The notes under the pieces: generated by a model
What the model saw: the letters and a program-made list of their open reading frames with translations, nothing else
The model's database searches: none
Told to the model about the DNA's origin: nothing
Program-made: the position numbers and the translations under genes
Shown: piece after piece, positions 4,326 to 55,892 of the stretch
Numbering within the stretch: the stretch's first letter is position 1
Layout of the letters: the number at the start of each line of letters is the position of its first letter
Assembly (NCBI GenBank): GCA_041665505.1
Contig: JBAYIR010000004.1
Location: 6,797 to 70,796 of the forward strand
Direction of reading: 5' to 3'
DNA from: Patescibacteria group bacterium
Lineage (GTDB): Bacteria; Patescibacteriota; Patescibacteriia; UBA1558; GWA2-36-10
Length of the DNA stretch: 64,000 nt

Positions 4326-5024
4326 ATGGCTTTTAAGACCGAAGCATTTGTACTGCGCTCTAGGCCTTTTAGAGAGGCTGATAGAATTTATGATCTATTT
4401 ACTCCTCAAGAAGGTGTGCTTTCAGTAGTGCTTCGTTCCGCTGCCAAATCGCAGAGTAAATTAGCCGGTCATCTCATGCCTTTTTATAAAGTCAAAGTAA
4501 TGATTGGTCGTGGTAAGATGGATCATATGGCTGGAGCGTCAATTTTGGAGACCTACAGTAATTTACATAAAGACCTAAAGAGTATGTCACTGGCCTCTTC
4601 AGTAATAGAATTATTTTTGAGTGACAAGTCGATGGGGCAAAAATTTGTGGAATTTTCTTTGTTGGAGCACATTTTTACTATTTTGAATCATCAAGGTATT
4701 ACGATGAATAAAAAAATGATGTTAGTGCGAGCTTTCTTATGGAAGTATTTGTCGGTAGCTGGTTGGCAACCACATTTTGAGTCAAGACAAAATTCTGATA
4801 GTGATGGTATAATGTATATGGAACATGATCATAGCCGAGCAGTACCCATCAGTGGAGAGTTATTTGATTTTTTGCAGTTTATTATCCAATCCGATTGGCC
4901 ACAACTCATAAATTTATCTGTTGATAGTCGGCTCAACAAAGAATGGCTTAGGATTTCAAGAATATATTATCAATCAATATTTGAACAAGCTTCTAAATCT
5001 TTAAAACTATTTACCTATGGCTAA
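4326..5024 (+). CDS. recO: DNA repair protein RecO
   Basis: N-terminus TEAFVLRSRPFREADRIYDLFT..G.LS..LRSAAKSQSKL matches the RecO family pattern. Confidence 0.65.
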   Translation: MAFKTEAFVLRSRPFREADRIYDLFTPQEGVLSVVLRSAAKSQSKLAGHLMPFYKVKVMIGRGKMDHMAGASILETYSNLHKDLKSMSLASSVIELFLSDKSMGQKFVEFSLLEHIFTILNHQGITMNKKMMLVRAFLWKYLSVAGWQPHFESRQNSDSDGIMYMEHDHSRAVPISGELFDFLQFIIQSDWPQLINLSVDSRLNKEWLRISRIYYQSIFEQASKSLKLFTYG

Positions 5025-6855
5025 AATAAAAAAAAGAGAGTTGGATTCAGCTAAAAGAGCTCCAATTAGAAAACAAAATTACGAAGCACCATCTTTGGCT
5101 AAAAAAGAAAGGGAAGTGCCAAAAGAATATCAAACTTTTCAAAAAGCCCCCAAAGGCAAAGGCTCTTGTTTGTGGTTTTTATTTTTACTTTTTGTAGCTA
5201 CCGTAGCTGGATTTTGGTATTTCTCCAAACAAAGTAAGGAGACCATAGAAAATAGTATAAAATTATCTATTGAGGGTCCTCAAGAAATAATTTCAGGCGA
5301 TCAAGCTACTTATAAAATAACTTATGAAAATATAGACCTAGTCACTATGCAGCAGTTGGAACTAGCAGTACGCTGGCCCAATGGATTTTACTTTGATGAG
5401 TCTAACGTAGAAGCTGTCGATGAAAATACTACTACCTGGTTGTTGCCAGATTTAGCTCCTGGTCAAAAGGCTTCTTTGGAGATTAAAGGACAATTAGTTG
5501 GTCAAAAAGATGAAGAGCTGACAACTTCTTTTTCCTTGTCTTATAAACCAGAAAATTTTAATTCAGATTTTAAAGTCAAAGATAGTATCAATACAAAAAT
5601 ATCTGATGCCAAAATTGAACTTAGTGTTGAAACTGTTGATAAAACCTTGGTGGCTACTAATCAGGAAATGAAAGTTAATTTTACAAATTTAACAGAAGAA
5701 AATTTAACAGAACTTTATATTGATATTTTATATCCTGATGATTTTGAAATAACTCAAAAGACTGATGATACAGCCTTAGTAAACCCAGGAGAAGAAGAAT
5801 TTGCAGTAGATTTTGTCAAAGAAGGAGATTATTTCAAATTAAATCTGGATGCTAAGCAAAGTAAGACCATGTTGATTAATGGATTTTTTACAGTTGATAG
5901 TAAAGCCGAGCAATTATTGGTAGCTGAAATTGGTAATATGGCTGATGGAAAATTTCGTCGATTGGCCAGAGTAGAAAAAAATATTATAGTTATCAATCCA
6001 AAATTTGATATGGATTTTACTATCAATGGCCAAAAGGGTGATCAATCTATAAATTGGGGAGATACATTAGAATACCAATTAAAAGTGACCAATAGTAGTC
6101 AGGAAGCTATATCAGACGCAGTAATTATAGCTACTATAGATAGTTTGGCCCTTGATTGGAATAGTTTGGATACAGTTGGAAATTATAATGAAGGTAAAAT
6201 TACTTGGACCAAAAATGAAAATACCGATTTGAGTAGTTGGCCAGCTGGAGAAGCTAGAACATTCACTTGGAAAGTAAATGTAGTTAAAGATCCTCAACCA
6301 GATCGGATGGTAGAAAATATTATTGAAATAAAGATAGCTGGCCTAGAAGCTTGGCAGCAAGTTAGTTCTCCTTTAGTGTTAACTATTGGTGAAAGTCTTA
6401 GCTTTAATAATGGAGTATATTGGGATTTGGGTGGTCGAAGAGTAGGCTCTGGTCTATTACCACCTCAGGTCAATGAAAGTACAGAGTATTTGGTAGTTTG
6501 GTCTTTACCTCAGGCTACTGGTGCTTTTGATCAGGTGACTGTCAGCACCAATTTACCACCCCAAGTAGATTTTATTTCGGAAATGGATATTCAAGAAGGA
6601 ACTTTGGAGTTTGATTTAGAGGGGCGTAGTTTAGTTTGGTCTATGGAAAATTTTTCGGATATTAATCTGCCCACCACAGCTTCTTTTGTAGTCAGACTTA
6701 CTCCTGGTCAGGAAAATATTGGGCAAGCTATGACTATACTTAATACCACCACAGTGAAAGCTAGCGGTGTAGAAGATGTAGTGGTGCGTTCTAAAATTAT
6801 AAAAACTTCTGATGTCATGTCAGATAGTAGCGAGCCTATTGGTATTGTAGAATAA
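5017..6855 (+). CDS. large hypothetical N-terminally membrane-anchored extracellular protein (repeat/beta-rich)
   Basis: Single N-terminal TM (CLWFLFLLFVATVAGFWYF) then 550 aa Thr/Asn/Val-rich; start overlaps the recO stop; no family recognised. Confidence 0.35.
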   Translation: MAKIKKRELDSAKRAPIRKQNYEAPSLAKKEREVPKEYQTFQKAPKGKGSCLWFLFLLFVATVAGFWYFSKQSKETIENSIKLSIEGPQEIISGDQATYKITYENIDLVTMQQLELAVRWPNGFYFDESNVEAVDENTTTWLLPDLAPGQKASLEIKGQLVGQKDEELTTSFSLSYKPENFNSDFKVKDSINTKISDAKIELSVETVDKTLVATNQEMKVNFTNLTEENLTELYIDILYPDDFEITQKTDDTALVNPGEEEFAVDFVKEGDYFKLNLDAKQSKTMLINGFFTVDSKAEQLLVAEIGNMADGKFRRLARVEKNIIVINPKFDMDFTINGQKGDQSINWGDTLEYQLKVTNSSQEAISDAVIIATIDSLALDWNSLDTVGNYNEGKITWTKNENTDLSSWPAGEARTFTWKVNVVKDPQPDRMVENIIEIKIAGLEAWQQVSSPLVLTIGESLSFNNGVYWDLGGRRVGSGLLPPQVNESTEYLVVWSLPQATGAFDQVTVSTNLPPQVDFISEMDIQEGTLEFDLEGRSLVWSMENFSDINLPTTASFVVRLTPGQENIGQAMTILNTTTVKASGVEDVVVRSKIIKTSDVMSDSSEPIGIVE

Positions 6856-6857
6856 TT

Positions 6858-8000
6858 ATGTTTAGTCTAAAGCAAAAATCAAAAAAATCTAAAGCTAGAT
6901 TAGGGGTACTAAAGACTGCTAGAGGAGAAATTAGTACTCCTTTTTTTATGCCTATTGCTACCAAAGCGGCTATTAAATCTTTAACAGCTCAAGAGGTAAA
7001 AGATTTGGGTTTTGAAATTATACTTTCCAATACTTATCACAATCTGCTTCGACCTGGTTTAGAGGTGATTAAAAAGTTTGGTGGTTTGCACAAGTTTATG
7101 AATACCGACTTGCCGATTTTGACGGACAGCGGTGGTTATCAAGTTTTTTCTTTGGCTAAATTTCGAAAGATTATAAATAATAATATTGAATTTCAATCGC
7201 ACATTGATGGTTCACGTCATATTTTAAATCCAAAAAAAGTGATTGATATTCAAGTAGCCCTAGGTAGTGATATTATGATGGTCCTTGATGAATGTGTCGG
7301 ACTACCGACTAGCCGAGCCAAAGCTCTAGAGGCTTTAGAACGAACTACTACCTGGGCACAGATAGCACTTGATTATAAAAATAAATTAAATCAAAAATCA
7401 AGCCAGATAAAAAAACAATTAATTTTTGGTATTGTGCAAGGAGCTGATTTTAAAGACTTGCGTCTGCGCTCTGCTCAAGAATTGTTAGTAATAGATAGTA
7501 ATTTTTCCGCCAAAGGCGGACCAGCCTCTGGCTGGGATGGCTATGCGGTCGGGGGTTTAGCAGTAGGCGAGTCAACTAAGACTATGTATAAGGTTTTAGA
7601 TTATACCGTGCCAGTTTTGCCAGAAAACAAAGCTCGCTATCTAATGGGAGTAGGTTATCCAGAAAATATTATAGAAGCAGTCAAGCGCGGTATTGATATG
7701 TTTGACTGTGTTATTCCCACTCGGGAAGCTCGGCACGGCAAGTTGTATTTATGGAATGGTCAGCCAGATGTCACTAAAAAGAATTTTTATAAAACCATAA
7801 ATATCAATAATGCTAAATTTGTCAAAGATAGCAGCTCAATTAATAATAGTAATCTGAAAAATTATTCTAAAGCTTATTTGCATCATCTATTTAAAACTCA
7901 AGAGCCGCTAGCTCTAAGTTTGGCTACTTTAAATAATTTATATTTTTATGCTAGTTTAATGACCAACATTAGATTGGCAGTCAAGAAAAATAAATTATAA
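6858..8000 (+). CDS. tgt: queuine tRNA-ribosyltransferase
   Basis: ARLGVLKTARGEISTPFFMPIATKAA..., LPILTDSGGYQVFSL, Zn-site region CVIPTREARHG. Confidence 0.85.
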   Translation: MFSLKQKSKKSKARLGVLKTARGEISTPFFMPIATKAAIKSLTAQEVKDLGFEIILSNTYHNLLRPGLEVIKKFGGLHKFMNTDLPILTDSGGYQVFSLAKFRKIINNNIEFQSHIDGSRHILNPKKVIDIQVALGSDIMMVLDECVGLPTSRAKALEALERTTTWAQIALDYKNKLNQKSSQIKKQLIFGIVQGADFKDLRLRSAQELLVIDSNFSAKGGPASGWDGYAVGGLAVGESTKTMYKVLDYTVPVLPENKARYLMGVGYPENIIEAVKRGIDMFDCVIPTREARHGKLYLWNGQPDVTKKNFYKTININNAKFVKDSSSINNSNLKNYSKAYLHHLFKTQEPLALSLATLNNLYFYASLMTNIRLAVKKNKL

Positions 8001-8002
8001 TA

Positions 8003-8875
8003 ATGAAAAATGGGAGAGGCTTTACTTTAATAGAAATAATCATGGCTGTAGGGATTATAGCTCTTTTGGCCGCTATTTCTTTTACAGCTATTAACCCCAA
8101 TAGAAGAATAGGTCAAGCTAACGATGCTTTGAGAGAGGCTGCTCTAGCTGGTGTTGGTAAAGCTTTGGAACTTTATGTATCTGATCATGCTAGTTTACCT
8201 TCAGGTTTTATGACCGCTAACATAAATATTGGGCATAAAGTAGTGCTTTGTTCATCCGCTGCTACACTTAGCTGTGATGGTCAAACTAGAGCCTGTCTAG
8301 TAGTAGATGATACAGATTTTCTAACTACTTATTTAGGAGGAGATTTACCAGTTGATCCAGCCAAAAACAATACTACTGATACAGGCTATTATATTACTAG
8401 AATCAGTGGTGATGCTATATCATTTGGAGCTTGCGATGCTTATCAAAGTGCTAATATACAAATAGCTACACAGGTAGCTTTAGCTCCATATATTGTCACT
8501 TGCGGTGATGGTGATATTGGAGGAGCTGAGGTCTGTGATGATGGTAACACCACCACTGAAACTCAAATTTGTAATAATGATATTTTAGAAACAGGTAACC
8601 ACTGTAATGCAGATTGTAGTCAGGAAATAGTTTTGACTGAAACTTGTGATGATGGTCCTGAAAGCTGTGGCGATGGAGCAAAACAAAGTGGTACTTTTTG
8701 TAATGCTACTTGTAATGGTAATTATACAGTGAGTGAAGTCTGTGATTATACAGGATTTGCTTGTAGTGAAGCTCCTATTGCTCCTCATACTGGTGCTGTA
8801 GGTTGCCCTAGCGCTCCTTTTTGTAATGCAGATTGTAGTGCTTGTGTAAAAACATGTCCAGCCCCTCCAGCATAG
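8003..8875 (+). CDS. type IV pilin-like protein with C-terminal cysteine-rich (Myxococcus-type CGDG...CDDGN) repeat domain
   Basis: Class III signal peptide / prepilin motif MKNGRG|FTLIEIIMAVGIIALLAA; C-terminus has CGDGDIGGAEVCDDGNTTTE and 20+ Cys. Confidence 0.7.
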   Translation: MKNGRGFTLIEIIMAVGIIALLAAISFTAINPNRRIGQANDALREAALAGVGKALELYVSDHASLPSGFMTANINIGHKVVLCSSAATLSCDGQTRACLVVDDTDFLTTYLGGDLPVDPAKNNTTDTGYYITRISGDAISFGACDAYQSANIQIATQVALAPYIVTCGDGDIGGAEVCDDGNTTTETQICNNDILETGNHCNADCSQEIVLTETCDDGPESCGDGAKQSGTFCNATCNGNYTVSEVCDYTGFACSEAPIAPHTGAVGCPSAPFCNADCSACVKTCPAPPA

Positions 8876-8935
8876 AATTTTTAAATATGTTTATTGATAA
8901 AAATATAGTATAATAATATTATTGAAATAAATATT

Positions 8936-9739
8936 ATGTGTTGTTGTATAAAACAAAAAAAAGGATTCACCTTAGTAGAATTGACAATAGTTATTGCTGT
9001 GGCTTTGATACTTTCAGCTTCAGCTTTTTTGGTACTTAATCCTACTAAGCGTATTGGTCAGACCAATGATGCCAGGCGTTTTGAAGATGTAACAGCTCTA
9101 GCCAAAGCTGTAGAGCTTTATCAAATTGATAATGATGCTTTACCTACTACTTTGGCTACGGCTAATGTTAATGTTGGGCATAAAGTAGTGCTTTGTTCAT
9201 CAGCGGCTACACTTAGCTGTGATGGTCAAACTAGAGCTTGTCTGGTATTAAATGATACAGATTTTTTTGTCAATTATTTGGGAGGAAGTTTGCCAGTTGA
9301 TCCAACTAAAACTAGTACCGCTGACACTGGCTATTATATTGGTAGGAGTGGTGATAAAATGATTTTTGGGGCTTGTGATACTTATGAAGCCCCAACTATA
9401 GAATACATTGCTAAAGCCAGTTTAGGCGTCTATAGCTCAACTTGTGGCGATGGTGCCACTGAAGGAGCTGAAGTCTGTGATGATGGAGATGTCACTACTG
9501 AGGGGTGTCGCAATGGAGCACTAGATCTGGCCGGCACTTACTGTAATTCTACTTGTACGGCCCAGATTGTGATTAATACGTCAGAAGTCTGTGATTCAAA
9601 TGCAGCAGGTGGCTGCTTTGACTGGCCTACTAGTTCGCAATATCATGATAGAGTAGTATATAGTACAGCATGTAAAAATTATGCATTATGTTCCTCGGAT
9701 TGTGACAGCTGTGTGGCAGCCTGTATGGGTGAGCCATAG
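8936..9739 (+). CDS. type IV pilin-like protein, paralog of the upstream gene, with cysteine-rich repeat domain
   Basis: Prepilin motif KKG|FTLVELTIVIAVALI; block NVNVGHKVVLCSSAATLSCDGQTRACLV nearly identical to the upstream paralog; CGDGATEGAEVCDDGDVTTE. Confidence 0.7.
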   Translation: MCCCIKQKKGFTLVELTIVIAVALILSASAFLVLNPTKRIGQTNDARRFEDVTALAKAVELYQIDNDALPTTLATANVNVGHKVVLCSSAATLSCDGQTRACLVLNDTDFFVNYLGGSLPVDPTKTSTADTGYYIGRSGDKMIFGACDTYEAPTIEYIAKASLGVYSSTCGDGATEGAEVCDDGDVTTEGCRNGALDLAGTYCNSTCTAQIVINTSEVCDSNAAGGCFDWPTSSQYHDRVVYSTACKNYALCSSDCDSCVAACMGEP

Positions 9740-9814: not shown

Positions 9815-10198
9815 TTGATGACACAAAACATAATAATACAAGCTAGTAAGATTTTGTTGATTGATTTAATAGGGGAAATTCTTTATTTCCCTATTTGGTG
9901 GTATAGTCAGGGACTAAAAAGGACAGTGCTTTATGTTTTTAACTCTATTAAAAATACTAATCGTAATTTGGCTGTCGGCTTAATGTTTAAAAGTCTGTTT
10001 AAGCCAATGTTTGGTCAATATGACAGAGAGGGGCGAATAATTAGTTTTTTCTTTAGACTGATTTTGACTTTTGCTCGCTCCATAGTTTTTTTGATTTTGT
10101 TGTGTCTTTATTTACTGATGATAGTTTTTTGGATATTTTTGCCAGTCTTAGTAGTTTGGGGTATTTTTAATAATTTTAATACTTTATGGAAGGCCTAA
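9815..10198 (+). CDS. small hypothetical polytopic membrane protein
   Basis: Three or four hydrophobic helices; stop overlaps the start of the downstream Clp-like gene (translational coupling). Confidence 0.3.
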   Translation: MMTQNIIIQASKILLIDLIGEILYFPIWWYSQGLKRTVLYVFNSIKNTNRNLAVGLMFKSLFKPMFGQYDREGRIISFFFRLILTFARSIVFLILLCLYLLMIVFWIFLPVLVVWGIFNNFNTLWKA

Positions 10199-24355: not shown

Positions 24356-24700
24356 ATGCCAGTAGTCAAAAATGACAATAAAAACAAGGCTAATAATGAG
24401 TGGCTAAGACAAGGAATGATGATGTTTGCCGAAAGTACCGGCTGGATCGCTTTCCCAGTCATAGGAGCTCTGTTTTTAGGTCAATGGCTAGATGAAAGAC
24501 AAGGCACAGGGCAGTTATATTTTTTAAGTATTACAGCTCTAGCTTTTATACTTTCTTCTGTGGGTATAGGCATGACAGGCGTAAAGTATATGAATAGAAT
24601 TGAAAAAGATGAAGCTGGGAAGAAAAATAATAAATCAAATAGCTTAGACAAAACCACACAGGAGAAAAAACAAGAAAATGAGCCAAGAAACGATAAATAG
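24356..24700 (+). CDS. AtpZ/AtpI-like small membrane protein preceding the ATP synthase operon
   Basis: Position immediately upstream of atpB; two TM helices and a Lys-rich tail, as in ATP-synthase protein I families. Confidence 0.4.
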   Translation: MPVVKNDNKNKANNEWLRQGMMMFAESTGWIAFPVIGALFLGQWLDERQGTGQLYFLSITALAFILSSVGIGMTGVKYMNRIEKDEAGKKNNKSNSLDKTTQEKKQENEPRNDK

Positions 24701-25580
24701 CAATCAAAACAATATAGAAGATACTTCGCGCATAGTTGAAGAAATTTTGGGTGAAGACTTAAATCAGGAAGCTGGCGCTCATACAGCTGAAGGAGCTGAG
24801 CATGAGGAGCACGAGCATACTTTATTTGCCGAAACAGTTTTTCAGGTTGGTGATTTTCCAATCACCAATTCACTGCTGACATCTTGGGTAGCAGTTTTTT
24901 TAATTATTATTTTGTCATTGGTCATTCGAGCTAAAAATAGTCGCATCCCATCAGTTTTCCAAAGTTTTATGGAAATAATTATTGATGGCGCACTGGGTAT
25001 GATGGATTTAGTGACCAATGATAGAGCTAAAAGTAAAAAAGTATTTCCAGTTATATTTTCAATTTTTCTTTTTGTGCTTATCAACAACTGGTTGGGGTTG
25101 TTACCGGGTTTAGGCTCCATTACTTATAATGGAGTAGCCTTACTAAGAGGGGGTACAGCTGATTTAAATACCACATTAGCTTTAGGGTTGTTTTCCGTAG
25201 TATCGGCCAATATTTTTGGTATGCTGGTAGTCGGTGGTTGGAATTATTTTAATAAATTTGTAAACATAAAAGCATTAATAGAAATACCTGGTAAAATTAG
25301 GCACGAACCAACCATTGTTTTGGTTAATCCTATAACTTTTTTTGTAGGATTAATTGAGATAGTGTCAGAAGTGGCCAAAGTAGCTTCACTATCATTTAGG
25401 TTGTTTGGTAATATTTTTGCTGGGGAAGTATTGATTGCTTCTATTTCAGCTTTAGTGGCTTATGGTGTGCCGCTACCATTTATGTTTTTAGAAGTAATTG
25501 TCGGAATTATTCAGGCCTTGATATTTTCCATTCTGACTTTGGTTTATTATACTATTGCTTCAGTTGAGCATGAACATTAA
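24678..25580 (+). CDS. atpB: F-type ATP synthase Fo subunit a
   Basis: Signature RLFGNIFAGEVL and polytopic membrane profile. Confidence 0.85.
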   Translation: MSQETINSNQNNIEDTSRIVEEILGEDLNQEAGAHTAEGAEHEEHEHTLFAETVFQVGDFPITNSLLTSWVAVFLIIILSLVIRAKNSRIPSVFQSFMEIIIDGALGMMDLVTNDRAKSKKVFPVIFSIFLFVLINNWLGLLPGLGSITYNGVALLRGGTADLNTTLALGLFSVVSANIFGMLVVGGWNYFNKFVNIKALIEIPGKIRHEPTIVLVNPITFFVGLIEIVSEVAKVASLSFRLFGNIFAGEVLIASISALVAYGVPLPFMFLEVIVGIIQALIFSILTLVYYTIASVEHEH

Positions 25581-26027
<447 letters not shown>

Positions 26028-26111
26028 TCGATTGTTTTGAGTGCTCTCTATATATGAGGGCACGACTAAGCAATTAATCTCTCGACATAGTTCGAGATAG
26101 AAGAAAATAAT

Positions 26112-26606
26112 ATGGAAATTTTAGAATTATTTGGAGTCGATTGGAAACTAATGACAGCTCAGCTAGTCAACTTTATTATAGTTATCTTGGTACTTTGGTT
26201 TTTTGCTTTAAAACCATTGACTAAGACTATGCAAAAGAGAAATGATGAAATTTTCAAAGGCTTATCAGACGCCAAAGCCGCTGAAGAAAGATTGCAGCAA
26301 GTTGAAAAGGAAGTCAAAGAAAAACTCATTGAGACTAAAGGTCTAGCCTCTGGTATTTTGGAAGAAGCTAAAAAACAATCAGAAAAAAGTAAACAAGAAA
26401 ACTTGACCAAAACCAAAGAAGAAGTCGCTAAATTGATTGTCAAAGCTAAAGAACAAATTGCTAGCGAAAAAGATAATATGTTAGTGGAAATCAAAGGTGA
26501 AGTATCTAGTATGGTAGTAGTGGCTTTGGAAAAGATTTTATCAGGTGGGCTGACAAAAGATATAGACAAAAAGTATATTGATAAAGCCTTAAAAGATTTA
26601 AAATAA
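26112..26606 (+). CDS. atpF: F-type ATP synthase Fo subunit b
   Basis: N-terminal TM then long charged helix; operon position. Confidence 0.7.
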   Translation: MEILELFGVDWKLMTAQLVNFIIVILVLWFFALKPLTKTMQKRNDEIFKGLSDAKAAEERLQQVEKEVKEKLIETKGLASGILEEAKKQSEKSKQENLTKTKEEVAKLIVKAKEQIASEKDNMLVEIKGEVSSMVVVALEKILSGGLTKDIDKKYIDKALKDLK

Positions 26607-27007
26607 TGAAAAAAGACCAAGCAAAAATTTTGGCTGCCGCTTTGTATAAAGCTAGTGGTGATAAAAAAGGCAAAGAATTAGATAAAGTGATTGCCAATTT
26701 TTCGGCTTACCTCAGTCAGCACCGTTTGGTGCCTATGATTCCTAATATATTAGGGCAGTTGGAAAATATTCATTTTTTAAAAGAAGGTATCATAGCTACC
26801 AAGATAACTAGTCGTGAAGAACTAGCTCAGGCGGAAATAAAAAAGATTTCTGATTTGATAAAAGCTAAAACCAAAAAAGAAGTAGTAGTTAAAACAGAAA
26901 TAGATAAAGAACTTATTGGTGGGGTAGTAGTAAAATATAATGACAAAATTATAGATATGTCCATCAAGCATCAATTAAACAATTTAGCAAAACAATTAAG
27001 CAATTAA
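26606..27007 (+). CDS. atpH: F-type ATP synthase subunit delta (short)
   Basis: Operon position between b and alpha; OSCP-like C-terminal [20 protein letters not shown]. Confidence 0.6.
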
Positions 27008-27011
27008 TAAT

Positions 27012-28544
27012 ATGTCTTACGATCATTTAGTAAAAAGTTTGCAAAAACAACTGGAAAATTGGCAATCAGATGTCAAAGAAGAAACAGCTGGTGAAGTTAT
27101 TGAAGTAGGTGACGGTATCGCCAAAGTATCTGGTCTATCAGATGTCATGGCTTCTGAGATGCTTGAATTTGAGACCAAAGCCGGAGATAAAATCTATGGT
27201 GTGGTTTTGAACTTAGAAGAATTTGCCGTTGGGGCTATTATTTTGGGTGAATATGGAGCCTTAAAAGAGGGCGACAAAGTAAAAAGAACCAAGCGTATTT
27301 TGGAAGTACCAGTTGGAGAAGCTGTGATTGGCCGAGTAGTAAATGCTTTAGGTCAACCAGTTGATGGTAAAGGTAATATAAAATCCAATGAGTTCTATCC
27401 AGTAGAAAAAATTGCTCCTGGAGTTATTACTCGTCAGTCAGTCTTTCAGCCACTAGAAACTGGTATCAAAGTAATTGATGCTATTATCCCTATTGGTAAA
27501 GGCCAACGTGAGCTTATTATTGGTGATCGTCAAACTGGTAAAACGGCTTTAGCTATTGATGCTATTATCAATCAAAAAGGCAAAGATGTTATTTGTATTT
27601 ATGTGGCTATTGGTCAAAAAGAATCAAAAGTAGCTAGAATCGTAGCTAAATTAGAAGAGACTGGAGCAATGGATTACACCACAGTAGTTTTAGCTGGTGC
27701 TTCTGAATCAGCTGCTCTTTCCTATATTGCTCCTTATGCTGGATGTTCTATGGGAGAATACTTTATGGACAAAGGCAAAGATGTTTTAGTGATATATGAT
27801 GATTTATCAAAACACGCTGTAGCTTATCGTCAGATTTCATTGCTACTTAAAAGACCACCAGGACGTGAAGCCTATCCCGGTGACGTTTTCTATGTGCATT
27901 CTAGATTATTGGAGCGAGCTGCTAAGATGAGTGATGAACTAGGTGGTGGATCACTAACAGCCCTTCCTATTATTGAAACTCAAGCTGGTGATATTTCAGC
28001 CTATATTCCTACCAATGTGATTTCTATTACTGATGGTCAGATTTTCTTGGAAACAGATTTGTTTTACAAAGGTATCAGACCAGCTCTATCTACTGGTTTA
28101 TCAGTTTCTCGTGTCGGTAGTGCCGCTCAGAAAAAAGCTATGAAAAAAGTAGCTGGTAAATTGAAAATGGATTTGGCTCAATATAGAGAGTTAGAGGCCT
28201 TTGCTCAATTTGGTAGTGATTTGGATGAAGCCACCAAGCAACAGCTTGATCGTGGGGCTAGAGTGACCGAGATTTTGAAGCAAGGTCAATTTAAACCACT
28301 TTTACAAAGCAAACAGATATCTATAATTTATGCTGCTGCCAATGGTCATCTAGATAAAGTGCCTGTAGCCAATTTAGCTGCTTTTGAACAAAAATTATTT
28401 AGTAAAATGGAAGCGGAAGGCAAAGACGTTTTAGATAATATTGAAAAAACTGGTTTACTATCCGAAGCGGATGAACAAAAATTAAAAAATATAATTAATG
28501 ATTTGGTAGAGTTAGAAGAAAAAGTCGGAGAAGACAAAAAATAA
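27012..28544 (+). CDS. atpA: F-type ATP synthase subunit alpha
   Basis: Walker [14 protein letters not shown]; 510 aa. Confidence 0.9.
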
Positions 28545-28577
28545 TTAATTTATTTGTCATCTGACAGAAATAAATAT

Positions 28578-29492
28578 ATGCCCCAGGCAAGTAGAGATAT
28601 ACAAAGAAGAATAAAATCGGTCAAGAATACCAAAAAAATTACCAAGGCTATGGAATTGGTCTCAGCCGCTAAAATGCGTAAAGCTGTATCGAAAGTATTA
28701 GCTTCTCGTTCTTATTCTGATTTGGTTTGGGATACAGTGCTTCATTTGGTCAAAAAAGTTGATACCAATAAACATTTATTTTTTAAAGAACCAAAAGAAG
28801 TCAAAAAAGTAGCCGTAGTGATAGTGAGCACCAATCGAGGTCTGTGTGGTAGTTTTAATACCCAATTAGTAAATAAAGTAATAGAATCTATTAAACTCCA
28901 TCATCCCGAAGTAGTCCAGACCGATATTATTACCTGTGGTACTAAAGGTAGAGATGAAGTCAGACGACATAAAGTAAATCTAGTAGCTGATTTTCATAAA
29001 GAAGATATTACAGCTAGTTCAGAAGATATACGGCCAATTGCTCATATGATTACCAAAGATTTTATAAGTGCTAAATATGATAAAATTTTTATAGCTTATA
29101 CTGATTTTATGTCTTCTTTAAAGCAAGTACCTCATGTCAAACAATTATTGCCTATAGTAGCTGAGATAGATGCTAGATTAGGACACATTAGTCATGATAA
29201 AGATAAAGTAGCCAAAATAAATGTAGACAGTTTTGCAGAATTTATTTTTGAACCAGGTATGAAAAGTATTTTAGATGCTTTTTTGCCAAGACTTTTGGAA
29301 GTACAAATTTATCAATCAGTCTTGGAATCAGAAGCATCAGAGCACAGTGCTCGCATGTTTGCTATGAGAAATGCTACTGACGCTGCTGGTGAGATGATCA
29401 GCGAATTAACCTTGGCCTATAATCAAGCTCGTCAGGCCAATATTACTGCTGAGATTGCTGAAATTGCTGCTGGTAGTGCCGCTTTAGAATAA
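28578..29492 (+). CDS. atpG: F-type ATP synthase subunit gamma (start at MPQASRDIQRRIKSV)
   Basis: N-terminus RDIQRRIKSVKNTKKITKAMELVSAAKMRKA. Confidence 0.85.
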   Translation: MPQASRDIQRRIKSVKNTKKITKAMELVSAAKMRKAVSKVLASRSYSDLVWDTVLHLVKKVDTNKHLFFKEPKEVKKVAVVIVSTNRGLCGSFNTQLVNKVIESIKLHHPEVVQTDIITCGTKGRDEVRRHKVNLVADFHKEDITASSEDIRPIAHMITKDFISAKYDKIFIAYTDFMSSLKQVPHVKQLLPIVAEIDARLGHISHDKDKVAKINVDSFAEFIFEPGMKSILDAFLPRLLEVQIYQSVLESEASEHSARMFAMRNATDAAGEMISELTLAYNQARQANITAEIAEIAAGSAALE

Positions 29493-29558
29493 ATTTAATA
29501 ATAAAATAATAATATTTACCCCGTTAGAAATTTACAATTGCGGGGACGTGAAGATTAA

Positions 29559-30938
<1,380 letters not shown>

Positions 30939-30960
30939 TCTTGTGTTCTAGGATAATATT

Positions 30961-31395
30961 ATGAAACAAATTAAGTTAAAAATAGTAACTCCAGAGAAGA
31001 TACTTTTTGAAGATATAGTATCTCAGATTTCTGTTTCTACAATTATGGGTGAGATTACTATTTTACCAAATCATATACCACTGGTGTCTCAGCTAGCCTC
31101 AGGAGAGATAGTTATTAAAACTGAGCAAGGTAAAGAAGATTTTATGGCTGTTTCTGGTGGTTTTATAGAAGTATTGCCAGATCAAGTAGTTATTTTGGCT
31201 GATACAGCTGAGCGGGCAGAGGATATTGATGAAGCTCGGGCCGAAGAAGCTCGTCAGAAGGCGGAAGAGATTTTGAAGACCAAAGTGGCTGACGCCGAAG
31301 GCTTTGCTATGTTTACCGCCAAAATAGAAAAAGAATTAGCTCGACTCAAAGTCGTTAGAAAACATAAAAATAAAAGAATAAATCCAGGTAATTAA
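30961..31395 (+). CDS. atpC: F-type ATP synthase subunit epsilon
   Basis: N-terminal beta-sandwich LKIVTPEKILFEDIVSQISVSTIMGEITILPNHIPLVS. Confidence 0.8.
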   Translation: MKQIKLKIVTPEKILFEDIVSQISVSTIMGEITILPNHIPLVSQLASGEIVIKTEQGKEDFMAVSGGFIEVLPDQVVILADTAERAEDIDEARAEEARQKAEEILKTKVADAEGFAMFTAKIEKELARLKVVRKHKNKRINPGN

Positions 31396-31420
31396 GAATT
31401 GACTAATTAAAGAAATTTTT

Positions 31421-31965: not shown

Positions 31966-32508
31966 ATGATTAAACTTTTTTTAAAAATAATCAAAACTTC
32001 CCAAAATACTATTAAGGTTGATGAGTTTGATAGTGATGGAATAAAATTTGAATCACTTGGTAAAAAGACGAGATCCAAAATCACACATTTATTTGGTGGA
32101 TCTTTGGCTATCAGACAAATAGATGCTGGTTCAGATAATTCAGCTGAACAAGAGCTAGTCGCTTTATCCAATACTTTTTATGATTTGGAGCGTTTTGGTA
32201 TTCATTTTGTAGCTTCCCCTAAACATGCTGATATGCTCTTTGTCACTGGTCCAGTGACACGCAATATGGCTGAAGCTCTTCGCCGAGCGTATGAGGCTAC
32301 ACCCGACCCAAAGATTGTAGTGGCTGTTGGTGATGATGCTATCAGTGGAGGTATATACAAAGGTTCTTATGCTATTGTGGGTGCGGTTAGTGATGTTTTG
32401 CCGGTGGATTTTTCTATCCCCGGAGATCCGCCATCACCTAAAGTCATTCTTGGTCACTTACTTCGTATTATGAAGGAATTAGAAAATCAGTCATTCAAAA
32501 AGAAATAA
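31966..32508 (+). CDS. NuoB / hydrogenase small-subunit (HycG/EchC)-like protein with all [4Fe-4S] cysteine ligands replaced; protein contains no Cys
   Basis: FGIHFVASPKHADMLFVTGPVTRNMAEALRRAYEATPDPKIVVAVGDDAISGG...IPGDPPSP aligns to NuoB ..SPRQADVMIVAGT..KMAP.LR..Y.QMPEPK.VI.MGSCANGGG...PGCPP with C->D/S/L. Confidence 0.7.
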   Translation: MIKLFLKIIKTSQNTIKVDEFDSDGIKFESLGKKTRSKITHLFGGSLAIRQIDAGSDNSAEQELVALSNTFYDLERFGIHFVASPKHADMLFVTGPVTRNMAEALRRAYEATPDPKIVVAVGDDAISGGIYKGSYAIVGAVSDVLPVDFSIPGDPPSPKVILGHLLRIMKELENQSFKKK

Positions 32509-32509
32509 T

Positions 32510-34555
32510 ATGTTAGAACTAGCAGCATCTTCTATTGGTCTGGTCATTTTAATAGGGTTATTTACTGTTGGAGCAGTAGGCTCATTATTTTTGAGAACAG
32601 ATAAGCCAGCTAATGTTTGGAGTAGTTTTTTTGCTATTATCGGCTCTGTTTGGGGTATATTATTTGCCAGTCTGGTATTCTTTTTCAACCGGGAAATTAT
32701 TTTTTCCTTGACTTCAAGTATTTTTCCACTTTTGTCATTTTCATTTCATATTGATAAGTTAGCTAGTTTTTTTATTTTTACTATTTCACTCATTGCCTTA
32801 TTTTGCTCTATTTATGGGGCTGGTTATATCAAACATTTTTATAAAAAATATGACATTGGTGCTTTTGGATTTTTCTACCACCTGTTTATTTTAGGAATGA
32901 TTTCAGTAGTTATAGCGGCCAATGCTTTATTTTTTTTGCTAGCCTGGGAAATGATGTCTTTAGCCTCATATTTTTTGGTAGTTTATGATCGACATGATAC
33001 GCATAATGTAAAAGCTGGGTTTTTATATTTAGTTATGACTCATGTTGCTACAGCTTTTATTATTGTGGCCTTTTTACTACTGTATAAATTTACTGGGTCA
33101 TTTGATTTTGCTTTAATTCGCTCTAATGCCGAGTTGATTCCTCTCTGGTTAAAAAATACTGTTTTTGTGTTGACCTTAATTGGTTTCGGTACCAAAGCCG
33201 GTATTATACCATTTCATATCTGGTTACCTAGTGCTCATCCAGCTGCACCTTCGCATGTCAGCGCCCTTATGTCTGGTGTCATGATAAAAACTGGTATTTA
33301 CATGATGATTAGAATTTTTTTGGATTTATTACAGCCAGTGCCAGCTTGGTGGGGGCTTACTTTACTAGTAATTGGCTCAGTGTCATCTTTACTAGGTGTT
33401 CTTTACGCTTTGACTGAGCATGATATCAAGAAACTACTGGCTTATCATAGTATTGAAAACATTGGTATAATTTTATTGGGTTTAGGTAGTGCCTTAACTT
33501 TTTATTCTTTGGGGATGCCGTCTTTCGCTTTATTGGGGTTAGTAGCCGCGCTTTTTCACACTTTAAATCACGCTACTTTTAAATCACTATTGTTTTTGAG
33601 TGCTGGTTCAGTAATCAATCAAACGCACACGCGCAACATGGAAGATTATGGTGGTTTGATTAGGTACATGCCCCAGACAGCAGTTTTCTTTTTGATTGGC
33701 TCAATGGCAATTTCCGGCTTGCCTCCTTTCAATGGATTTTTTAGTGAGTGGCTCACTTTTCAGGCTTTGTTTCAAGGTATTATGCATTTTGCCATGATGG
33801 AGAAATCAATTTTTCTTTTGGCCGCAGGTGCCTTGGCTTTTACCGGTGGTTTAGCTTTAGCTTGCTTTGTTAAAGCTTTTGGTGTGATATTTTTGGCCAG
33901 ACCAAGAACTAAAGAAGCAGCTAACTCTCAAGAATCAGCTTGGTCTTTGCGTGTGGGTATGGCATCATTAGCTATATTGTGCTTATTATTTGGCTTATTT
34001 TCTGGCTCGCTAGTATCTTGGTTTACCAGAGTGGCTAATGGTCTAAGAATTTTTCAAGGTATTAATTCTTTTGTATCATCGCCAACTAATCAAATATTGG
34101 TTGCCGACAATAACTTTGCTTCCGTATCGGCCGCTGGTATTCTAGCTTTTTTACTTATCGTCTTGGTGTTAGTGCTTTTGGTATTCAAATATGTTATTCA
34201 TCGCCAACAAAAAATAAAAGTTGGTGCTACTTGGGATTGTGGAGTTGATTTGACTCCGCGAATGGAGATAACTGCTACTGGTTTTGCAAGATCAATTATT
34301 TTGATTTTTAAAGGAGTATTGAGACCTAGTATTCAGCGTGAGGTTGAATATCATGATTCGCAAACTCGCTATTTACCAAAAACTATTACAGTGGTGTCAG
34401 GTATCAATAATGTATATCAGCAATATTTTTATCAGCCTTTGTCCAAAAATGTTATTGCATTTGCACAGTCTGTCAGAAAAATTCAGAATGGTAATGTTAA
34501 TCTTTACATTTTATATATTTTTATTGCTTTAATTATTCTATTATTTTTTGTATAA
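32510..34555 (+). CDS. NuoL/MrpA/HyfB-like antiporter-type membrane subunit
   Basis: About 16 TM helices; motifs HIWLPSAHPAAPSHVSALMSGVMIKTGIY and LLAYHSIENIG typical of complex I antiporter-like subunits. Confidence 0.7.
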   Translation: MLELAASSIGLVILIGLFTVGAVGSLFLRTDKPANVWSSFFAIIGSVWGILFASLVFFFNREIIFSLTSSIFPLLSFSFHIDKLASFFIFTISLIALFCSIYGAGYIKHFYKKYDIGAFGFFYHLFILGMISVVIAANALFFLLAWEMMSLASYFLVVYDRHDTHNVKAGFLYLVMTHVATAFIIVAFLLLYKFTGSFDFALIRSNAELIPLWLKNTVFVLTLIGFGTKAGIIPFHIWLPSAHPAAPSHVSALMSGVMIKTGIYMMIRIFLDLLQPVPAWWGLTLLVIGSVSSLLGVLYALTEHDIKKLLAYHSIENIGIILLGLGSALTFYSLGMPSFALLGLVAALFHTLNHATFKSLLFLSAGSVINQTHTRNMEDYGGLIRYMPQTAVFFLIGSMAISGLPPFNGFFSEWLTFQALFQGIMHFAMMEKSIFLLAAGALAFTGGLALACFVKAFGVIFLARPRTKEAANSQESAWSLRVGMASLAILCLLFGLFSGSLVSWFTRVANGLRIFQGINSFVSSPTNQILVADNNFASVSAAGILAFLLIVLVLVLLVFKYVIHRQQKIKVGATWDCGVDLTPRMEITATGFARSIILIFKGVLRPSIQREVEYHDSQTRYLPKTITVVSGINNVYQQYFYQPLSKNVIAFAQSVRKIQNGNVNLYILYIFIALIILLFFV

Positions 34556-34557
34556 GT

Positions 34558-35490
34558 ATGATGATTTTTATTTGGATGTTACAAATTATTTTGGTGCCAG
34601 CTATTTCTCCGTTAGCCATTGGTCTAATTAATAAAATCAAGGCTCGATTACAAAATCGTCGAGGAGCAAGTATTTTCCAGCCTTATAAGGATATTTGGAA
34701 ATTATTGCACAAAGATGAAGTAGTAAGTCGTGATGCTTCTTGGATTTTTTATTATGCGCCTTATATAGTATTTACTATCACTTTGATTTTAGCAGGCAGC
34801 CTTCCTTTATTTGCCTCATTTTTGAATAATATTATGACTGGCGATTTATTGACGATTGTTTATTTGATTGCTTTTGGTACTTTCTTTTTGGCACTAGCAG
34901 GCTTAGATATTGGTGGAGCTTTTGGTGGTTTCGGTTCTAGTCGTGAAATGACCATATCAGCTTTGGCTGAGGGGGGATTGATTTTTTCTTTATTGGCTGT
35001 AGCTATAAATGTCGGCACTAGCAATCTTTTTGAGATGTCTACTCTTGGTTTTTCATTTTATGATCAACATCTTTTACCAACACTACTAGCCTTAGCTGGA
35101 TTTTTTGTGGTATTGCTCGCAGAAGCAGCTCGTTTTCCTTTTGATAATCCAGCTACTCATTTAGAGCTAACTATGGTTCACGAGGCTATGATTTTAGAAT
35201 ACTCTGGTAAAAGATTAGCTTTAATGGAGTGGTCGGCTGCTAATAAGCTGATTTGTTTTATTGCTATTGGTGCTAATATTTTTTTCCCTTGGGGTTTGGC
35301 TACTAGTGTAGGAGTCAGTGTTTTGATATTAAGTTTAATAATATTTATTTTAAAAATATTTATTTTTTGTGCAGTCATAGCTTTGATTGAATCCAGTATG
35401 GCGAAATTTAGATTTTTTCGTCTGCCAGATTTACTCTTTATTTCTTTTATTCTTAGCGTGATGGCCATCAGCCTCACCCAAATATTATGA
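34558..35490 (+). CDS. NuoH/HycD-like membrane subunit
   Basis: RRGASIFQPYKDIWKLLHKDEV matches the HycD/NuoH N-terminal pattern; 8 TM. Confidence 0.65.
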   Translation: MMIFIWMLQIILVPAISPLAIGLINKIKARLQNRRGASIFQPYKDIWKLLHKDEVVSRDASWIFYYAPYIVFTITLILAGSLPLFASFLNNIMTGDLLTIVYLIAFGTFFLALAGLDIGGAFGGFGSSREMTISALAEGGLIFSLLAVAINVGTSNLFEMSTLGFSFYDQHLLPTLLALAGFFVVLLAEAARFPFDNPATHLELTMVHEAMILEYSGKRLALMEWSAANKLICFIAIGANIFFPWGLATSVGVSVLILSLIIFILKIFIFCAVIALIESSMAKFRFFRLPDLLFISFILSVMAISLTQIL

Positions 35491-36134
35491 GTTTATTTAT
35501 TTCACAATTTTTATTAGCAATTATTTTTCTCACGATTGTTTTTTTGCATGGTGCCAAAAAAAATATGGGAGCAGTGCTTGCTTATAGATTGCAGTCATTA
35601 GCGGTAGTAGCTTTTACATTTAGCTCTTTTTTGGAGACTAGAGATATACTTTTACTTATTGTCTGTTTAGTTATCTTTATAGTAAAAGTTATTTTTGCGC
35701 CAATGTTTTTAGCACGTTTGATTAAAAAACATAAACTTACTTATTCGGTCAGTTCTTACCTCAATGCACCTCTGACTTTGATCATGATCGCCATTTTTAC
35801 TGCTATTGCTTATTCACAAAAATTTGTGCCTTTAACCAATCTCATGCCTGGCCATCAGACATTATTACATCTAGCTCTAGCTTCAATTTTTCTTTCTCTC
35901 TTTTTGATAGTCAATCGCAAAGGTGTGCTCTCTCAGATTATTGGTGTGTTGTCGCTAGAAAACAGTATAGTGACTTTTGTTTTTTATGCTGGTTTGGAGC
36001 AATCACATAGTTTGCAGCTAGGTATTTTATTTGATATTTTTATTTGGATTATTATTGCTATTGTATTTATGTCTATGATTTATCGCCACTATGATTCTTT
36101 GGATGTCAGTCGAATGAAGCAATTAAAAGATTAA
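35487..36134 (+). CDS. HyfE/NuoK-like small membrane subunit
   Basis: 215-aa polytopic protein with IGVLSLENSIVTF motif, located between the NuoH-like and NuoN-like genes as hyfE is in hyf operons. Confidence 0.4.
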   Translation: MSLFISQFLLAIIFLTIVFLHGAKKNMGAVLAYRLQSLAVVAFTFSSFLETRDILLLIVCLVIFIVKVIFAPMFLARLIKKHKLTYSVSSYLNAPLTLIMIAIFTAIAYSQKFVPLTNLMPGHQTLLHLALASIFLSLFLIVNRKGVLSQIIGVLSLENSIVTFVFYAGLEQSHSLQLGILFDIFIWIIIAIVFMSMIYRHYDSLDVSRMKQLKD

Positions 36135-36139
36135 CGCAT

Positions 36140-37582
36140 ATGGAATTACTATTTATTTTTTTACCATTATTAATTGCGGTTTTAGTGGGCTTGCTATCCA
36201 GACAAAGACTACTTATTGAAATTACTTCTGGTGTCGCTATAGGTCTTGCTTTTATTGCAACTATTTTAATAGCTCAAAATGTAGCTGCTTTTGACAGTTA
36301 TAGTCCTTGGCCTATTTTTTCTGTTGATGCACTAGGGGCTATAGTAATGCTTATTATTGCTTGTGTTGGTTTGATGGCTAGTATTTATTCTATTCCGTAT
36401 TTGCGCCAGGAAAGTGCTAAAGGTATCATTGGCTTTACTAGAGTTAGACAATATTTTAATTTATTGAATTTGTTTTTGGCCGTTATGTTTTTTGCCGTGA
36501 CCGCTAGCAATCCAGTAATGACTTGGATTGCCATAGAGCTAACTACTTTATCAACGGCTTTTCTGATTAGTTTTTACAATAAAGCTTCATCTATTGAAGG
36601 AGCTTGGAAATATTTAATTATTAATTCAGTTGGCTTGTTATTGGCATTTTTTGGGACCTTGTTATATTTGACTTCATTAGGAATAAATAGTGATAGTACT
36701 TTTGCTACTTGGAGCGCTTTACTGACTAATGCTCACAATCTAGATCCTCTGATTGCCAAACTAGCTTTTATTTTTGTTTTTATCGGCTATGGTGTTAAAG
36801 TTGGTCTTGCCCCAATGCATACTTGGCTACCTGATGCACATAGTAAATCACCAGCACCAATTAGTGCGCTTCTTTCGGGGGTACTTTTAAATGTTGCTTT
36901 TTTTACGGTGTTAAAATTTAAAATTATCACAGATGTGTCTGTCGGAGGGACGTTCTCAAGTACTATATTGATTAGCTTTGGCTTGTTGTCTATATTTATA
37001 GCAGCCATGATTATTCTGGTCCAAAAAAGTTACAAGCGACTATTGGCTTATTCTAGTATTGAAAATATGGGGATTATGTCACTTGGTTTTGGCTTTGGTG
37101 GCTTTGGTGGTTTTGGCGCTATTCTTCATATGCTATATCATTCGTTTATAAAATCAGCTCTATTTTTACTATCGGGTAATTTTTTACTCAAGTATAGCTC
37201 TGCTAAAATTAAAAACGTGCGTGGTGCTTTATTAGTTATGCCTCTGGCTAGCGTCCTGTTTCTAGTGGGGATTTTTGCTATTGCTGGTGTTCCGCCTTTT
37301 GGTATTTTTTTAACTAAATTATTTATTATCAGTGCAGGCATGTCTACTTATCCTATTGTTAGTATTGTCGCTGTAATTTTATTTTCCGTGGCTTTTGTTG
37401 GTTTATTTAAGCATGCTGGAGCTATGATTTTTGGTGAGCCGTCAGCTGAGATGAAGAAAGAAAAAGAAAATATTTGGTTGATTTTACCATCATTGGTTTT
37501 ACTGTTAACAATTTTCTTTTTGAGTTTTCAGCTGCCAAATTTTTTGTCAGTATTAATTAATGAAGCAGTTAAAGGGTATTAA
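36140..37582 (+). CDS. NuoN/NuoM/MrpD-like antiporter-type membrane subunit
   Basis: HTWLPDAHSKSPAPISALLSGVLLNVAFF and LLAYSSIENMG motifs. Confidence 0.7.
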   Translation: MELLFIFLPLLIAVLVGLLSRQRLLIEITSGVAIGLAFIATILIAQNVAAFDSYSPWPIFSVDALGAIVMLIIACVGLMASIYSIPYLRQESAKGIIGFTRVRQYFNLLNLFLAVMFFAVTASNPVMTWIAIELTTLSTAFLISFYNKASSIEGAWKYLIINSVGLLLAFFGTLLYLTSLGINSDSTFATWSALLTNAHNLDPLIAKLAFIFVFIGYGVKVGLAPMHTWLPDAHSKSPAPISALLSGVLLNVAFFTVLKFKIITDVSVGGTFSSTILISFGLLSIFIAAMIILVQKSYKRLLAYSSIENMGIMSLGFGFGGFGGFGAILHMLYHSFIKSALFLLSGNFLLKYSSAKIKNVRGALLVMPLASVLFLVGIFAIAGVPPFGIFLTKLFIISAGMSTYPIVSIVAVILFSVAFVGLFKHAGAMIFGEPSAEMKKEKENIWLILPSLVLLLTIFFLSFQLPNFLSVLINEAVKGY

Positions 37583-37585
37583 TAT

Positions 37586-54934: not shown

Positions 54935-55227
54935 TTACTACTAGTAAATAGAAAATCATCCGAGAGGGTGGTTTTTTGTTTAAATAAAAACCCTAGTCAC
55001 AAGAACTAGGGTGGTCTTACGACCTATCCCTTTTTATCTAGTAGCTAGATAAAAGAGGATTTTGAGGAGTTCCCACAGAGCTTTGATAAACAAAGCAGTA
55101 ATGATTTGTTTCAGTAGATCTTGCCGATTCATCACAAAACCTCCTTTGAAAGAGCAGGTCTTTAAAGGTAGACCTAAAACCCCTTCCCAAATGGGAAGGG
55201 GTTGGGCTTATATTTTTAAAACAAATA

Positions 55228-55548
55228 TCAACGCAAACCTTTCCCGCGGGAAGGTCTGTTATGATGATTTAGTTTATTTAGCATCAATTTATAGCCACTC
55301 ATACCATTATTAAGCCATTTAGAAATACGAGCCACAGTAGTAGAACTTAGGCCAGTTTTTTGGACTATTTGAGTATAGGGAATATTTTTATCTAGCATTT
55401 GAGCAGCTTGCCAACGATTAGAAAATTCTGTGATTTCTGACTCTGTCAAAAGGTCACGCAAAAATAGTTTGGCTTCTTTTTGATTGTCTAAAGCTAATAT
55501 AGCATCAAATAGCTTAATTATTTTTTTATCGTATTTCATATTAATCAC
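55228..55548 (-). CDS. TrpR-like (YerC/YecD family) DNA-binding protein
   Basis: LTESEITEFSNRWQAAQMLDKNIPYTQIVQKTGLSSTTVARISKWL helix-turn-helix of the Trp-repressor-like family. Confidence 0.55.
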   Translation of the reverse strand: MINMKYDKKIIKLFDAILALDNQKEAKLFLRDLLTESEITEFSNRWQAAQMLDKNIPYTQIVQKTGLSSTTVARISKWLNNGMSGYKLMLNKLNHHNRPSRGKGLR

Positions 55549-55608
55549 TTTAGTTAAGTAAAGTATAGCATATAAAAAAAATATGTCAATATTTTTAAAA
55601 AAAGGAAA

Positions 55609-55633: not shown

Positions 55634-55658
55634 CAAACAGCGTGTCGTGGTCGATAGT

Positions 55659-55883: not shown

Positions 55884-55892
55884 GAAGACCTC

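Follow-up and report, generated by a model that had tools for sequence, protein, structure and literature searches.

The subject of this analysis is a pair of adjacent genes, the open reading frames ORF1 and ORF2 (Table 1), in a stretch of 64 kb from contig JBAYIR010000004.1 of a Patescibacteria group bacterium, referred to below as the window. Both genes encode type IV pilins that join a pilin module at the N-terminus to a C-terminal cysteine-rich module, and they share a block of 92 bp that is nearly identical between them while the flanking parts have diverged. We consider, with a probability of about 0.7, that the two proteins are modular type IV pilins, from an uncultivated Parcubacteria/Komeilibacteria-like bacterium, that bear a DUF4215-like cysteine module, and that the block is an old footprint of gene conversion between the neighbours rather than a generator of diversity.

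Pilin signatures and the cysteine-rich module

The pilin assignment is solid for both proteins. A class III signal peptide, with a basic leader ending in Gly, Phe at +1, Glu at +5 and a hydrophobic run, could be found in each (leader MKNGRG and mature start FTLIEIIMAVGIIALLAAISF in ORF1; leader MCCCIKQKKG, which opens with an odd Cys-Cys-Cys tripeptide, and mature start FTLVELTIVIAVALILSASAF in ORF2), and the motif G-F-T-L-x-E is carried by these two alone among the six-frame ORFs of the window. Both score above the cut-offs of PF07963 (26.3 bits for ORF1 and 27.4 for ORF2, cut-off 21.2) and TIGR02532 (24.4 and 25.1 bits, cut-off 16.3), which confirms that these positions hold, as a preliminary description of this DNA had it, two paralogous pilin genes in tandem, both of the type IV class and both with a prepilin leader. 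An AlphaFold2 model based on 79 family sequences, with a mean per-residue confidence (pLDDT) of 84.6 and values above 90 over residues 1-170, has the lollipop fold, a long N-terminal α1 helix (residues 9-62) on a small antiparallel β-sheet, and the family profile matched the α1 of solved major pilins and pseudopilins (Geobacter PilA-N, PilA4, PulG, PilE1 and PilE) at E values from 2e-9 to 1e-4. Thermus thermophilus PilA4 and Vibrio EpsG, compared for the pilin/pseudopilin fold of the head, differ in being only 120-130 residues long, without the four-Cys pattern of the head and without a C-terminal module.

There are 20 Cys in ORF1 and 19 in ORF2, and since three of the latter lie in the leader that would be cleaved, the mature proteins are expected to retain 20 and 16, both even numbers, divided into 4 in the head and 16 (ORF1) or 12 (ORF2) in the C-terminal module, which makes up the last 124 or 101 residues. 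The C-terminal domains are thus cysteine-rich, as had been described, but the 20 or more Cys attributed to 250 residues overstated their extent, the Cys-rich parts being ~125 and ~100 residues. Similarly, the CGDG..GAEVCDDG motif is present, but the several units that had been read are reduced to one full unit per protein, CGDGDIGGAEVCDDGNTTTE at residues 167-186 of ORF1 and CGDGATEGAEVCDDGDVTTE at residues 170-189 of ORF2, plus a partial second unit, CDDGPESCGDG, in ORF1. The module is acidic (D+E 19 versus K+R 2 in ORF1) and confidently modelled (pLDDT 92), and no solved structural neighbour was found for it.

The Myxococcus repeat, to which the domains had been assigned, now carries the name cysteine-rich acidic repeat (TIGR02232). 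Its hidden Markov model (HMM) is barely reached by ORF2 (20.9 bits, cut-off 20.8) and gave nothing at E<=1 for ORF1, while PF13948 (DUF4215) scored 15.1 bits for ORF2, under its cut-off of 27, and had no match in ORF1, so that the assignment has marginal HMM support. At the family level, 16/27 members matched TIGR02232 at E<=0.01, and a distant homolog (P0101) combines an N_methyl domain with a genuine PF13948 match of 69 bits. By hhalign, the first unit of the family aligned to canonical repeats (P0101, P0110, P0107) with 96.9% probability over only 18 columns (CGxG-x5-E-x-CDDGN). The module shares with DUF4215/TIGR02232 the motif C-G-[DN]-G-x5-E-x-C-D-D-G-[ND], the acidic composition and multiple regularly spaced Cys, whereas the second half of the canonical unit of ~31 residues and 4 Cys is represented here by a '...TE.x.CGNG-x5-GTYCN-x2-C' hairpin, and in place of long tandem arrays of ~30-40-residue units (CGxG-x5-E-x-CDDGN-x4-DGC-x3-C) there are one or two modified units and a distinct, lineage-specific cap. 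Because only the first 18 columns align and the units are modified, the module would be a divergent, distant relative of the TIGR02232/DUF4215 repeat rather than a canonical member.

An exact 18-nt direct repeat (TGTAATGCAGATTGTAGT, 8603-8620 and 8822-8839, + strand) lies within ORF1 and encodes CNADCS both in the first Cys unit and in the cap. It would fit a module that arose from internal repeats, and might allow recombination or slippage within the gene.

Origin of the shared 92-bp tract

By blastn, the tract is identical between ORF1 and ORF2 at 86/92 positions (93.5%) and includes uninterrupted matches of 28 and 32 nt, compared with whole-gene identities of ~62% for DNA and 51% for protein. 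One of its 26-mers is present exactly two times in the window, against 0 times in 100 shuffles. The near-identical internal block amid diverged flanks, previously put at ~80 bp, was therefore borne out: the DNA-level alignment of the paralogs mapped the tract to the two intervals in Table 1, and divergence along the alignment was not uniform. The gene conversion proposed for it is supported by the tests that follow. Over the 24 residues that the tract encodes (GHKVVLCSSAATLSCDGQTRACLV), the two proteins do not differ; four of the six nucleotide differences are synonymous, and the other two are replacements at the 3′ edge.

Purifying selection must contribute to this likeness, because no other segment of the family is as well conserved as the tract, which holds three of the four invariant Cys of the head (C83, C91 and C98) as well as the invariant K79, V81 and G93. 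It might even be supposed that no recombination took place, and that the most strongly constrained segment of the head together with AT-biased codons could alone give near-identity. Two points speak for this and weigh against conversion: with an AT-rich codon bias (69% codon sharing gene-wide), part of the DNA identity follows from amino-acid identity, and the same codon is used at 20/24 of the identical residues in the block versus 70/107 outside, a difference that is not significant alone (p=0.067). The inference of conversion relied on tests restricted to variable sites, not on codon sharing. Nevertheless, constraint as the sole cause is unlikely, since the two neighbours agree at every block position that varies within the family (G77, H78, V80, A86-S90, R96 and A97). 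The block agrees at 24/24 residues between ORF1 and ORF2, while 74 relatives reach at most 20/24 when compared with one or the other, and among 1881 comparably diverged family pairs (mean block identity 14.7, standard deviation 2.2) they are the sole pair at 24. In the pairs of other genomes, the homologous block is identical at 12-20/24 residues and has ordinary synonymous divergence (5/11 same codons in pair L001), whereas the Nei-Gojobori proportion of synonymous differences (pS) between ORF1 and ORF2 is 0.21 in the block (4 of 18.7 sites; dS ~0.25) versus 0.63 elsewhere.

The tests on variable sites control for site-specific constraint, and the triplets and quartets were built with relatively distant tandem pairs (L001-L012, L019-L024) and not with the closest orthologs (P0002/P0010, P0030). 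The quartet with L001 placed the two neighbours together (AB against CD) at 7/9 informative sites in the block versus 16/80 outside (p=9e-4), and with six outgroup pairs the group-by-genome pattern was dominant in the block and not outside it (Fisher p 4e-6 to 9e-3). Within the block, the neighbours shared the derived state in triplets at 14-30 sites versus 2-3 for the alternatives, with the patterns about equal outside, and the pooled AB fraction was 0.96-0.97 at residues 77-96 versus 0.40 overall. Four control pairs (L001, L003, L019, L024) peaked at AB fractions of 0.45-0.60, without a homogenised tract. A scan of about ten independent pairs located a similar tract in the same region of L012 (0.95), and homogenisation of other regions in L002/L022, L021, L004 and L006 (0.71-0.78); a similar tract is present in about one half of the tandem pairs from relatives, and conversion appears to be recurrent in the family. 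Given that these tests control for constraint at each site and unite the paralogs only in the block, the sequence pattern is best explained by gene conversion over a short tract between the two tandem genes, and the four synonymous differences and the replacements at the 3′ edge indicate that the event was not recent. The copy of the block in ORF2 has the look of the ORF1 lineage ('HKVVLCSSAA'). An RNA element embedded in the block was also considered and rejected, as the folding z-scores were -1.0 and -1.4, the predicted folds of the copies do not agree, and the DNA of the block is not conserved between genomes.

It had further been suggested that the recombination serves antigenic variation of a pilus tip or adhesin. 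Systems of the pilE/pilS type comprise one expressed locus with silent 5′-truncated cassettes, a G-quadruplex (G4) in cis, and frequent exchange of variable exposed regions. The tract resembles Neisseria pilE/pilS in the non-reciprocal short-tract transfer between pilin gene copies, and two adjacent pilin genes with a recombination tract, as well as C-terminal modules that are mosaic across the family with three tail types incongruent with the heads, could be taken as signs of programmed variation of the exposed pilus surface or tip adhesin. However, both copies are complete, each with its own start codon and leader, and neither a third copy nor a promoterless fragment or silent truncated cassette could be found by tblastn and blastn in the window; there is also no canonical G4 (G3+N1-7 x4) anywhere in the window, and no structured RNA in the tract. 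Furthermore, the tract is in the conserved β1-β3 core and is not hypervariable, its synonymous differences show it to be old, and divergence within the pair is greatest in the variable C-terminal modules (nucleotide identity 0.45-0.6). Antigenic variation is rejected for the window, and a programmed pilE/pilS-type system is extremely improbable as an explanation of the locus. A 23-mer from the block had no match in metagenome_contigs, a collection from which the source contig is seemingly missing too, which makes this negative uninformative.

Modularity, pilus operon and possible role

The family to which the two proteins belong is small. A word-indexed search returned 111 homologs, all the named ones being from Patescibacteria, Parcubacteria or Komeilibacteria and many being paired on one contig, and an exhaustive phmmer search with residues 31-290 against 1.84 billion cluster representatives returned few matches, namely 124 proteins at E<=1e-3, 43 at E<=1e-10 and 13 at E<=1e-30. 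Relatives have the conserved gene order IleRS-RecO-DUF11-Tgt-pilin(s)-TM-ClpC, where TM is a membrane protein, with three, two or one pilin genes at the tgt-clpC site. Outside the shared block, ORF1 is nearest to P0002 and ORF2 to P0030 and P0050, the tandem neighbour ranking 8th and 22nd; as each paralog is nearer to its counterparts in other genomes, and both the pair and its position are conserved, the tandem duplication is old. At the same site, the P0002 contig contains three consecutive N_methyl genes (286, 289 and 157 residues) and the P0030 contig a single 280-residue pilin, 5′ of which lies a 170-residue ORF without a Pfam match that is possibly a decayed pilin copy.

In relatives, the pilin head (residues ~1-166) could be found alone (150-190 residues) or joined to Fib_succ_major, an Ig-like domain, a different 24-Cys domain or the present module. 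The Cys module, at 57-60% identity to residues 166-290 of ORF1, also occurs in P0076-P0100 behind a different pilin-like N-terminus (G/AIALLLVIM, the slash marking the Gly boundary) that lacks Glu5, and in multi-repeat proteins of up to 3288 residues, so that ORF1 and ORF2 are modular pilins in the sense of a pilin module fused to a module that also occurs independently. Two of the Cys-rich proteins with the G/AIALLLVIM N-terminus are encoded inside the pilus operon of related metagenome-assembled genomes (MAGs; L017 1-12975 and L018 1-12962), in the order CheA-like kinase, response regulator (CheY), PilB, PilC, pilin with Fib_succ_major (363 residues), 1039-residue pilin (DUF2341/LamG), 430-residue pilin (LamG), Cys-rich PilX-like protein (293-297 residues) and PilM fusion (586-614 residues), that is, with four successive modular pilins having different display domains. 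One MAG (GCA_002869235.1) holds both such an operon and the tandem pair L003. This position within a PilB-PilC-PilM operon ties the Cys module to type IV pili, beside display modules of the lectin type.

Modular pilins are known from Streptococcus sanguinis, in which PilB has a vWA module and PilC a lectin module (Raynaud et al. 2021, PMC8179133), and >1,200 such proteins in 264 architectures are reported, several of them from candidate-phyla bacteria (PMC8179133). The pair described here is similar in that the grafted module also exists outside pilins and the same head occurs with at least five different C-termini, but differs in having a small disulfide-type acidic repeat module instead of a vWA or lectin module, in that its genes stand in tandem, as a conserved pair, away from the pilus operon, and in that binding is putative. 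The minor pilins PilX1 and PilX2 of Saccharibacteria TM7x have accessory C-terminal domains, are implicated in host binding, and lack a canonical PilD signal (PMC11623550). They are likewise type IV pilus subunits of Patescibacteria with additional C-terminal domains, and they resemble the operon-encoded G/AIALL class in lacking the signal; however, their domains are a β-jelly roll and a β-propeller instead of a Cys-rich acidic repeat, they belong to another lineage, and ORF1 and ORF2 have canonical G/FTLxE signals.

Heads and tails of the family show discordant, mosaic relationships. The head of ORF1 is nearest to those of P0002, P0009 and P0006, while its C-terminal module is nearest to those of P0003, which has an ORF2-like head, and of the operon-encoded P0076-P0082, the module of P0002 being of another type. 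At least three cap types could be distinguished, namely I (CDYTG...AVGC), II (W..DC...GW.TE) and III (CDSN..C...YY...C), and the pairs within genomes combine I+III, as ORF1 and ORF2 do, I+II, II+III or II+II. This suggests, from comparison of the sequences, that modules were exchanged among pilin loci over evolutionary time. It is a tentative and rather doubtful extension of this that the Cys module is a cassette exchangeable among tandem pilins and the PilX-like pilin of the operon, and that recombination may re-assort binding modules and thereby retune host or surface recognition; if true, modules would be swapped over evolution to alter the host range and not to evade immunity, with the 92-bp tract as one visible trace of the recombination. 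Within one MAG, a recent conversion between the PilX-like gene of the operon and a tandem pilin (L018 vs L003) was considered as well and rejected, the DNA identity being only ~69%.

The Cys-rich module probably serves attachment to surfaces or host cells. A prepilin peptidase would remove the leader, and a PilB/PilC/PilM machine, with its genes in another part of the genome, would then polymerise the pilin module via α1. The filament could thus display the rigid Cys-rich module, most likely as a low-abundance component or at its tip. The head would be held by its four invariant Cys and the C-terminal module by further disulfide-type pairing, and the displayed module may act as a ligand- or host-binding (adhesin) module, of which the paralogs, with tails I and III, would offer different versions. 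Conversion between the neighbours would have homogenised β1-β3 of the head as a by-product of tandem paralogy.

Several observations count against this picture. ORF1 is below every HMM threshold for Cys repeats, and the alignment extends over only half of the canonical repeat; neither a prepilin peptidase nor any gene for pilus assembly could be found in the window, which otherwise holds housekeeping genes only, so that assembly by a type IV pilus machine rests on the related genomes; and the α1 profile resembles that of major rather than minor pilins, which makes the placement at the tip or at low abundance a guess. The proteins might instead be part of another kind of type IV filament, for instance a competence pilus for DNA uptake (Com-like) or a pseudopilus like that of type II secretion, in which the Cys module would be non-adhesive and bind DNA or metal or stiffen the filament. 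This is quite improbable, as the GspG and Com matches are far under the family cut-offs and confined to α1, and the acidic module would be poorly suited to DNA binding; in relatives, moreover, CheA/CheY and pilins of the lectin type (LamG, Fib_succ_major) share the PilB-PilC-PilM operon with the module, an arrangement typical for type IV pili that are adhesive or motile.

Genomic setting and significance

The window is of ~35% GC and nearly all coding, on the + strand. The stop codon of tgt is followed after 2 nt by the start of ORF1, and a spacer of 60 bp separates ORF1 from ORF2. The two proteins exactly match database entries (Table 1) from a Patescibacteria MAG, on a contig of 91.5 kb, that are annotated as 'prepilin-type N-terminal cleavage/methylation domain-containing protein'. 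The strongest promoter-like site, TTGGCA-16-TATAAT (11/12, in the 7974-8003 region), stops 2 nt 5′ of the ATG of ORF1, and together with the nearby tgt stop this suggests that ORF1 is leaderless or co-translated with tgt.

Table 1. Features of the tandem pilin locus, in coordinates of the window (residue numbers are those of the respective unprocessed protein).
Feature	Coordinates	Strand	Remarks
ORF1, modular type IV pilin gene	8003..8875	+	290 aa; NCBI MFA6466796.1; C-terminal tail type I
ORF1 class III leader MKNGRG	8003..8020	+	predicted prepilin-peptidase cut after G6, from the motif; mature start FTLIE (Phe1, Glu5)
ORF1 pilin module	8021..8500	+	residues 7-166; α1 helix (residues 9-62) and β-sheet head with 4 invariant Cys (C83, C91, C98, C144)
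Putative gene-conversion tract, ORF1 copy	8229..8320	+	encodes residues 77-100 (GHKVVLCSSAATLSCDGQTRACLV) plus flanks; strands β1-β3 of the head
ORF1 Cys-rich acidic module	8501..8872	+	residues 167-290; 16 Cys; one full and one partial CGDG...CDDG unit; cap 'CDYTG...AVGC...C..C...C'
Promoter-like site TTGATA-17-TATTAT	8894..8922	+	60-bp spacer 5′ of ORF2; consensus scan only, not evidence of function
ORF2, modular type IV pilin gene	8936..9739	+	267 aa; NCBI MFA6466797.1; C-terminal tail type III
ORF2 class III leader MCCCIKQKKG	8936..8965	+	predicted cut after G10; three Cys removed if cleaved
Putative gene-conversion tract, ORF2 copy	9174..9265	+	blastn partner of 8229..8320
ORF2 Cys-rich acidic module	9443..9736	+	residues 170-267; 12 Cys; residues 168-191 are the only stretch reaching the TIGR02232 cut-off

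On the 3′ side of the pair, a predicted membrane protein of 127 residues without a Pfam match (9815-10198, + strand) has its last 13 nt in common with the start of clpC, and a membrane protein is kept at this place in relatives (126 residues on the P0030 contig). On the 5′ side, between recO and tgt, a 612-residue protein (5017-6855, + strand) has an N-terminal transmembrane segment and DUF11/CLIPPER-type repeats (PF01345, 56 bits); its position just 5′ of the pilins is kept in two related contigs, and it is possibly a cell-surface protein. No functional tie of the pilins to tgt, RecO, the DUF11 protein, the 127-residue membrane protein or ClpC was found despite the conserved synteny.

Elsewhere in the window, a six-gene membrane module resembling complex I and Mrp-Mbh (31966-39154, + strand) lies directly 3′ of an F-type ATP synthase operon (~24678-31400) and has a strongly negative AT skew (-0.21 to -0.24). 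Its subunits are NuoB-like (Oxidored_q6), two Proton_antipo_M proteins (681 and 480 residues), NuoH-like, NuoK-like and a fused NuoC-NuoD (522 residues), and it looks like a putative complex related to group-4 [NiFe]-hydrogenases (Ehr/Mbh-like). Respiratory-type modules are unusual in Patescibacteria. The region 55000-56250 is without a long + strand ORF, and scans for tRNA and Rfam families detected no tRNA, tmRNA or other Rfam-level RNA gene in the 64 kb.

Modular pilins and gene conversion between paralogs are both already known, the two genes carry a generic prepilin annotation, and genes of this kind are expected in the group. Still, the locus provides a worked example that an identical block in tandem surface-protein genes can result from ordinary short-tract conversion and not from a variation system. 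For the means by which ultrasmall Patescibacteria find and hold their hosts, the best candidates are type IV pili, and to our knowledge almost nothing is known of pilus-host attachment in Patescibacteria outside Saccharibacteria. The interest of the pair rests mainly on its uncharacterised, confidently modelled module and the possible role of that module in attachment: with this locus, a small family of Parcubacteria-type modular pilins is defined, whose compact module, shared with a pilin of the pilus operon, is a concrete candidate adhesin.

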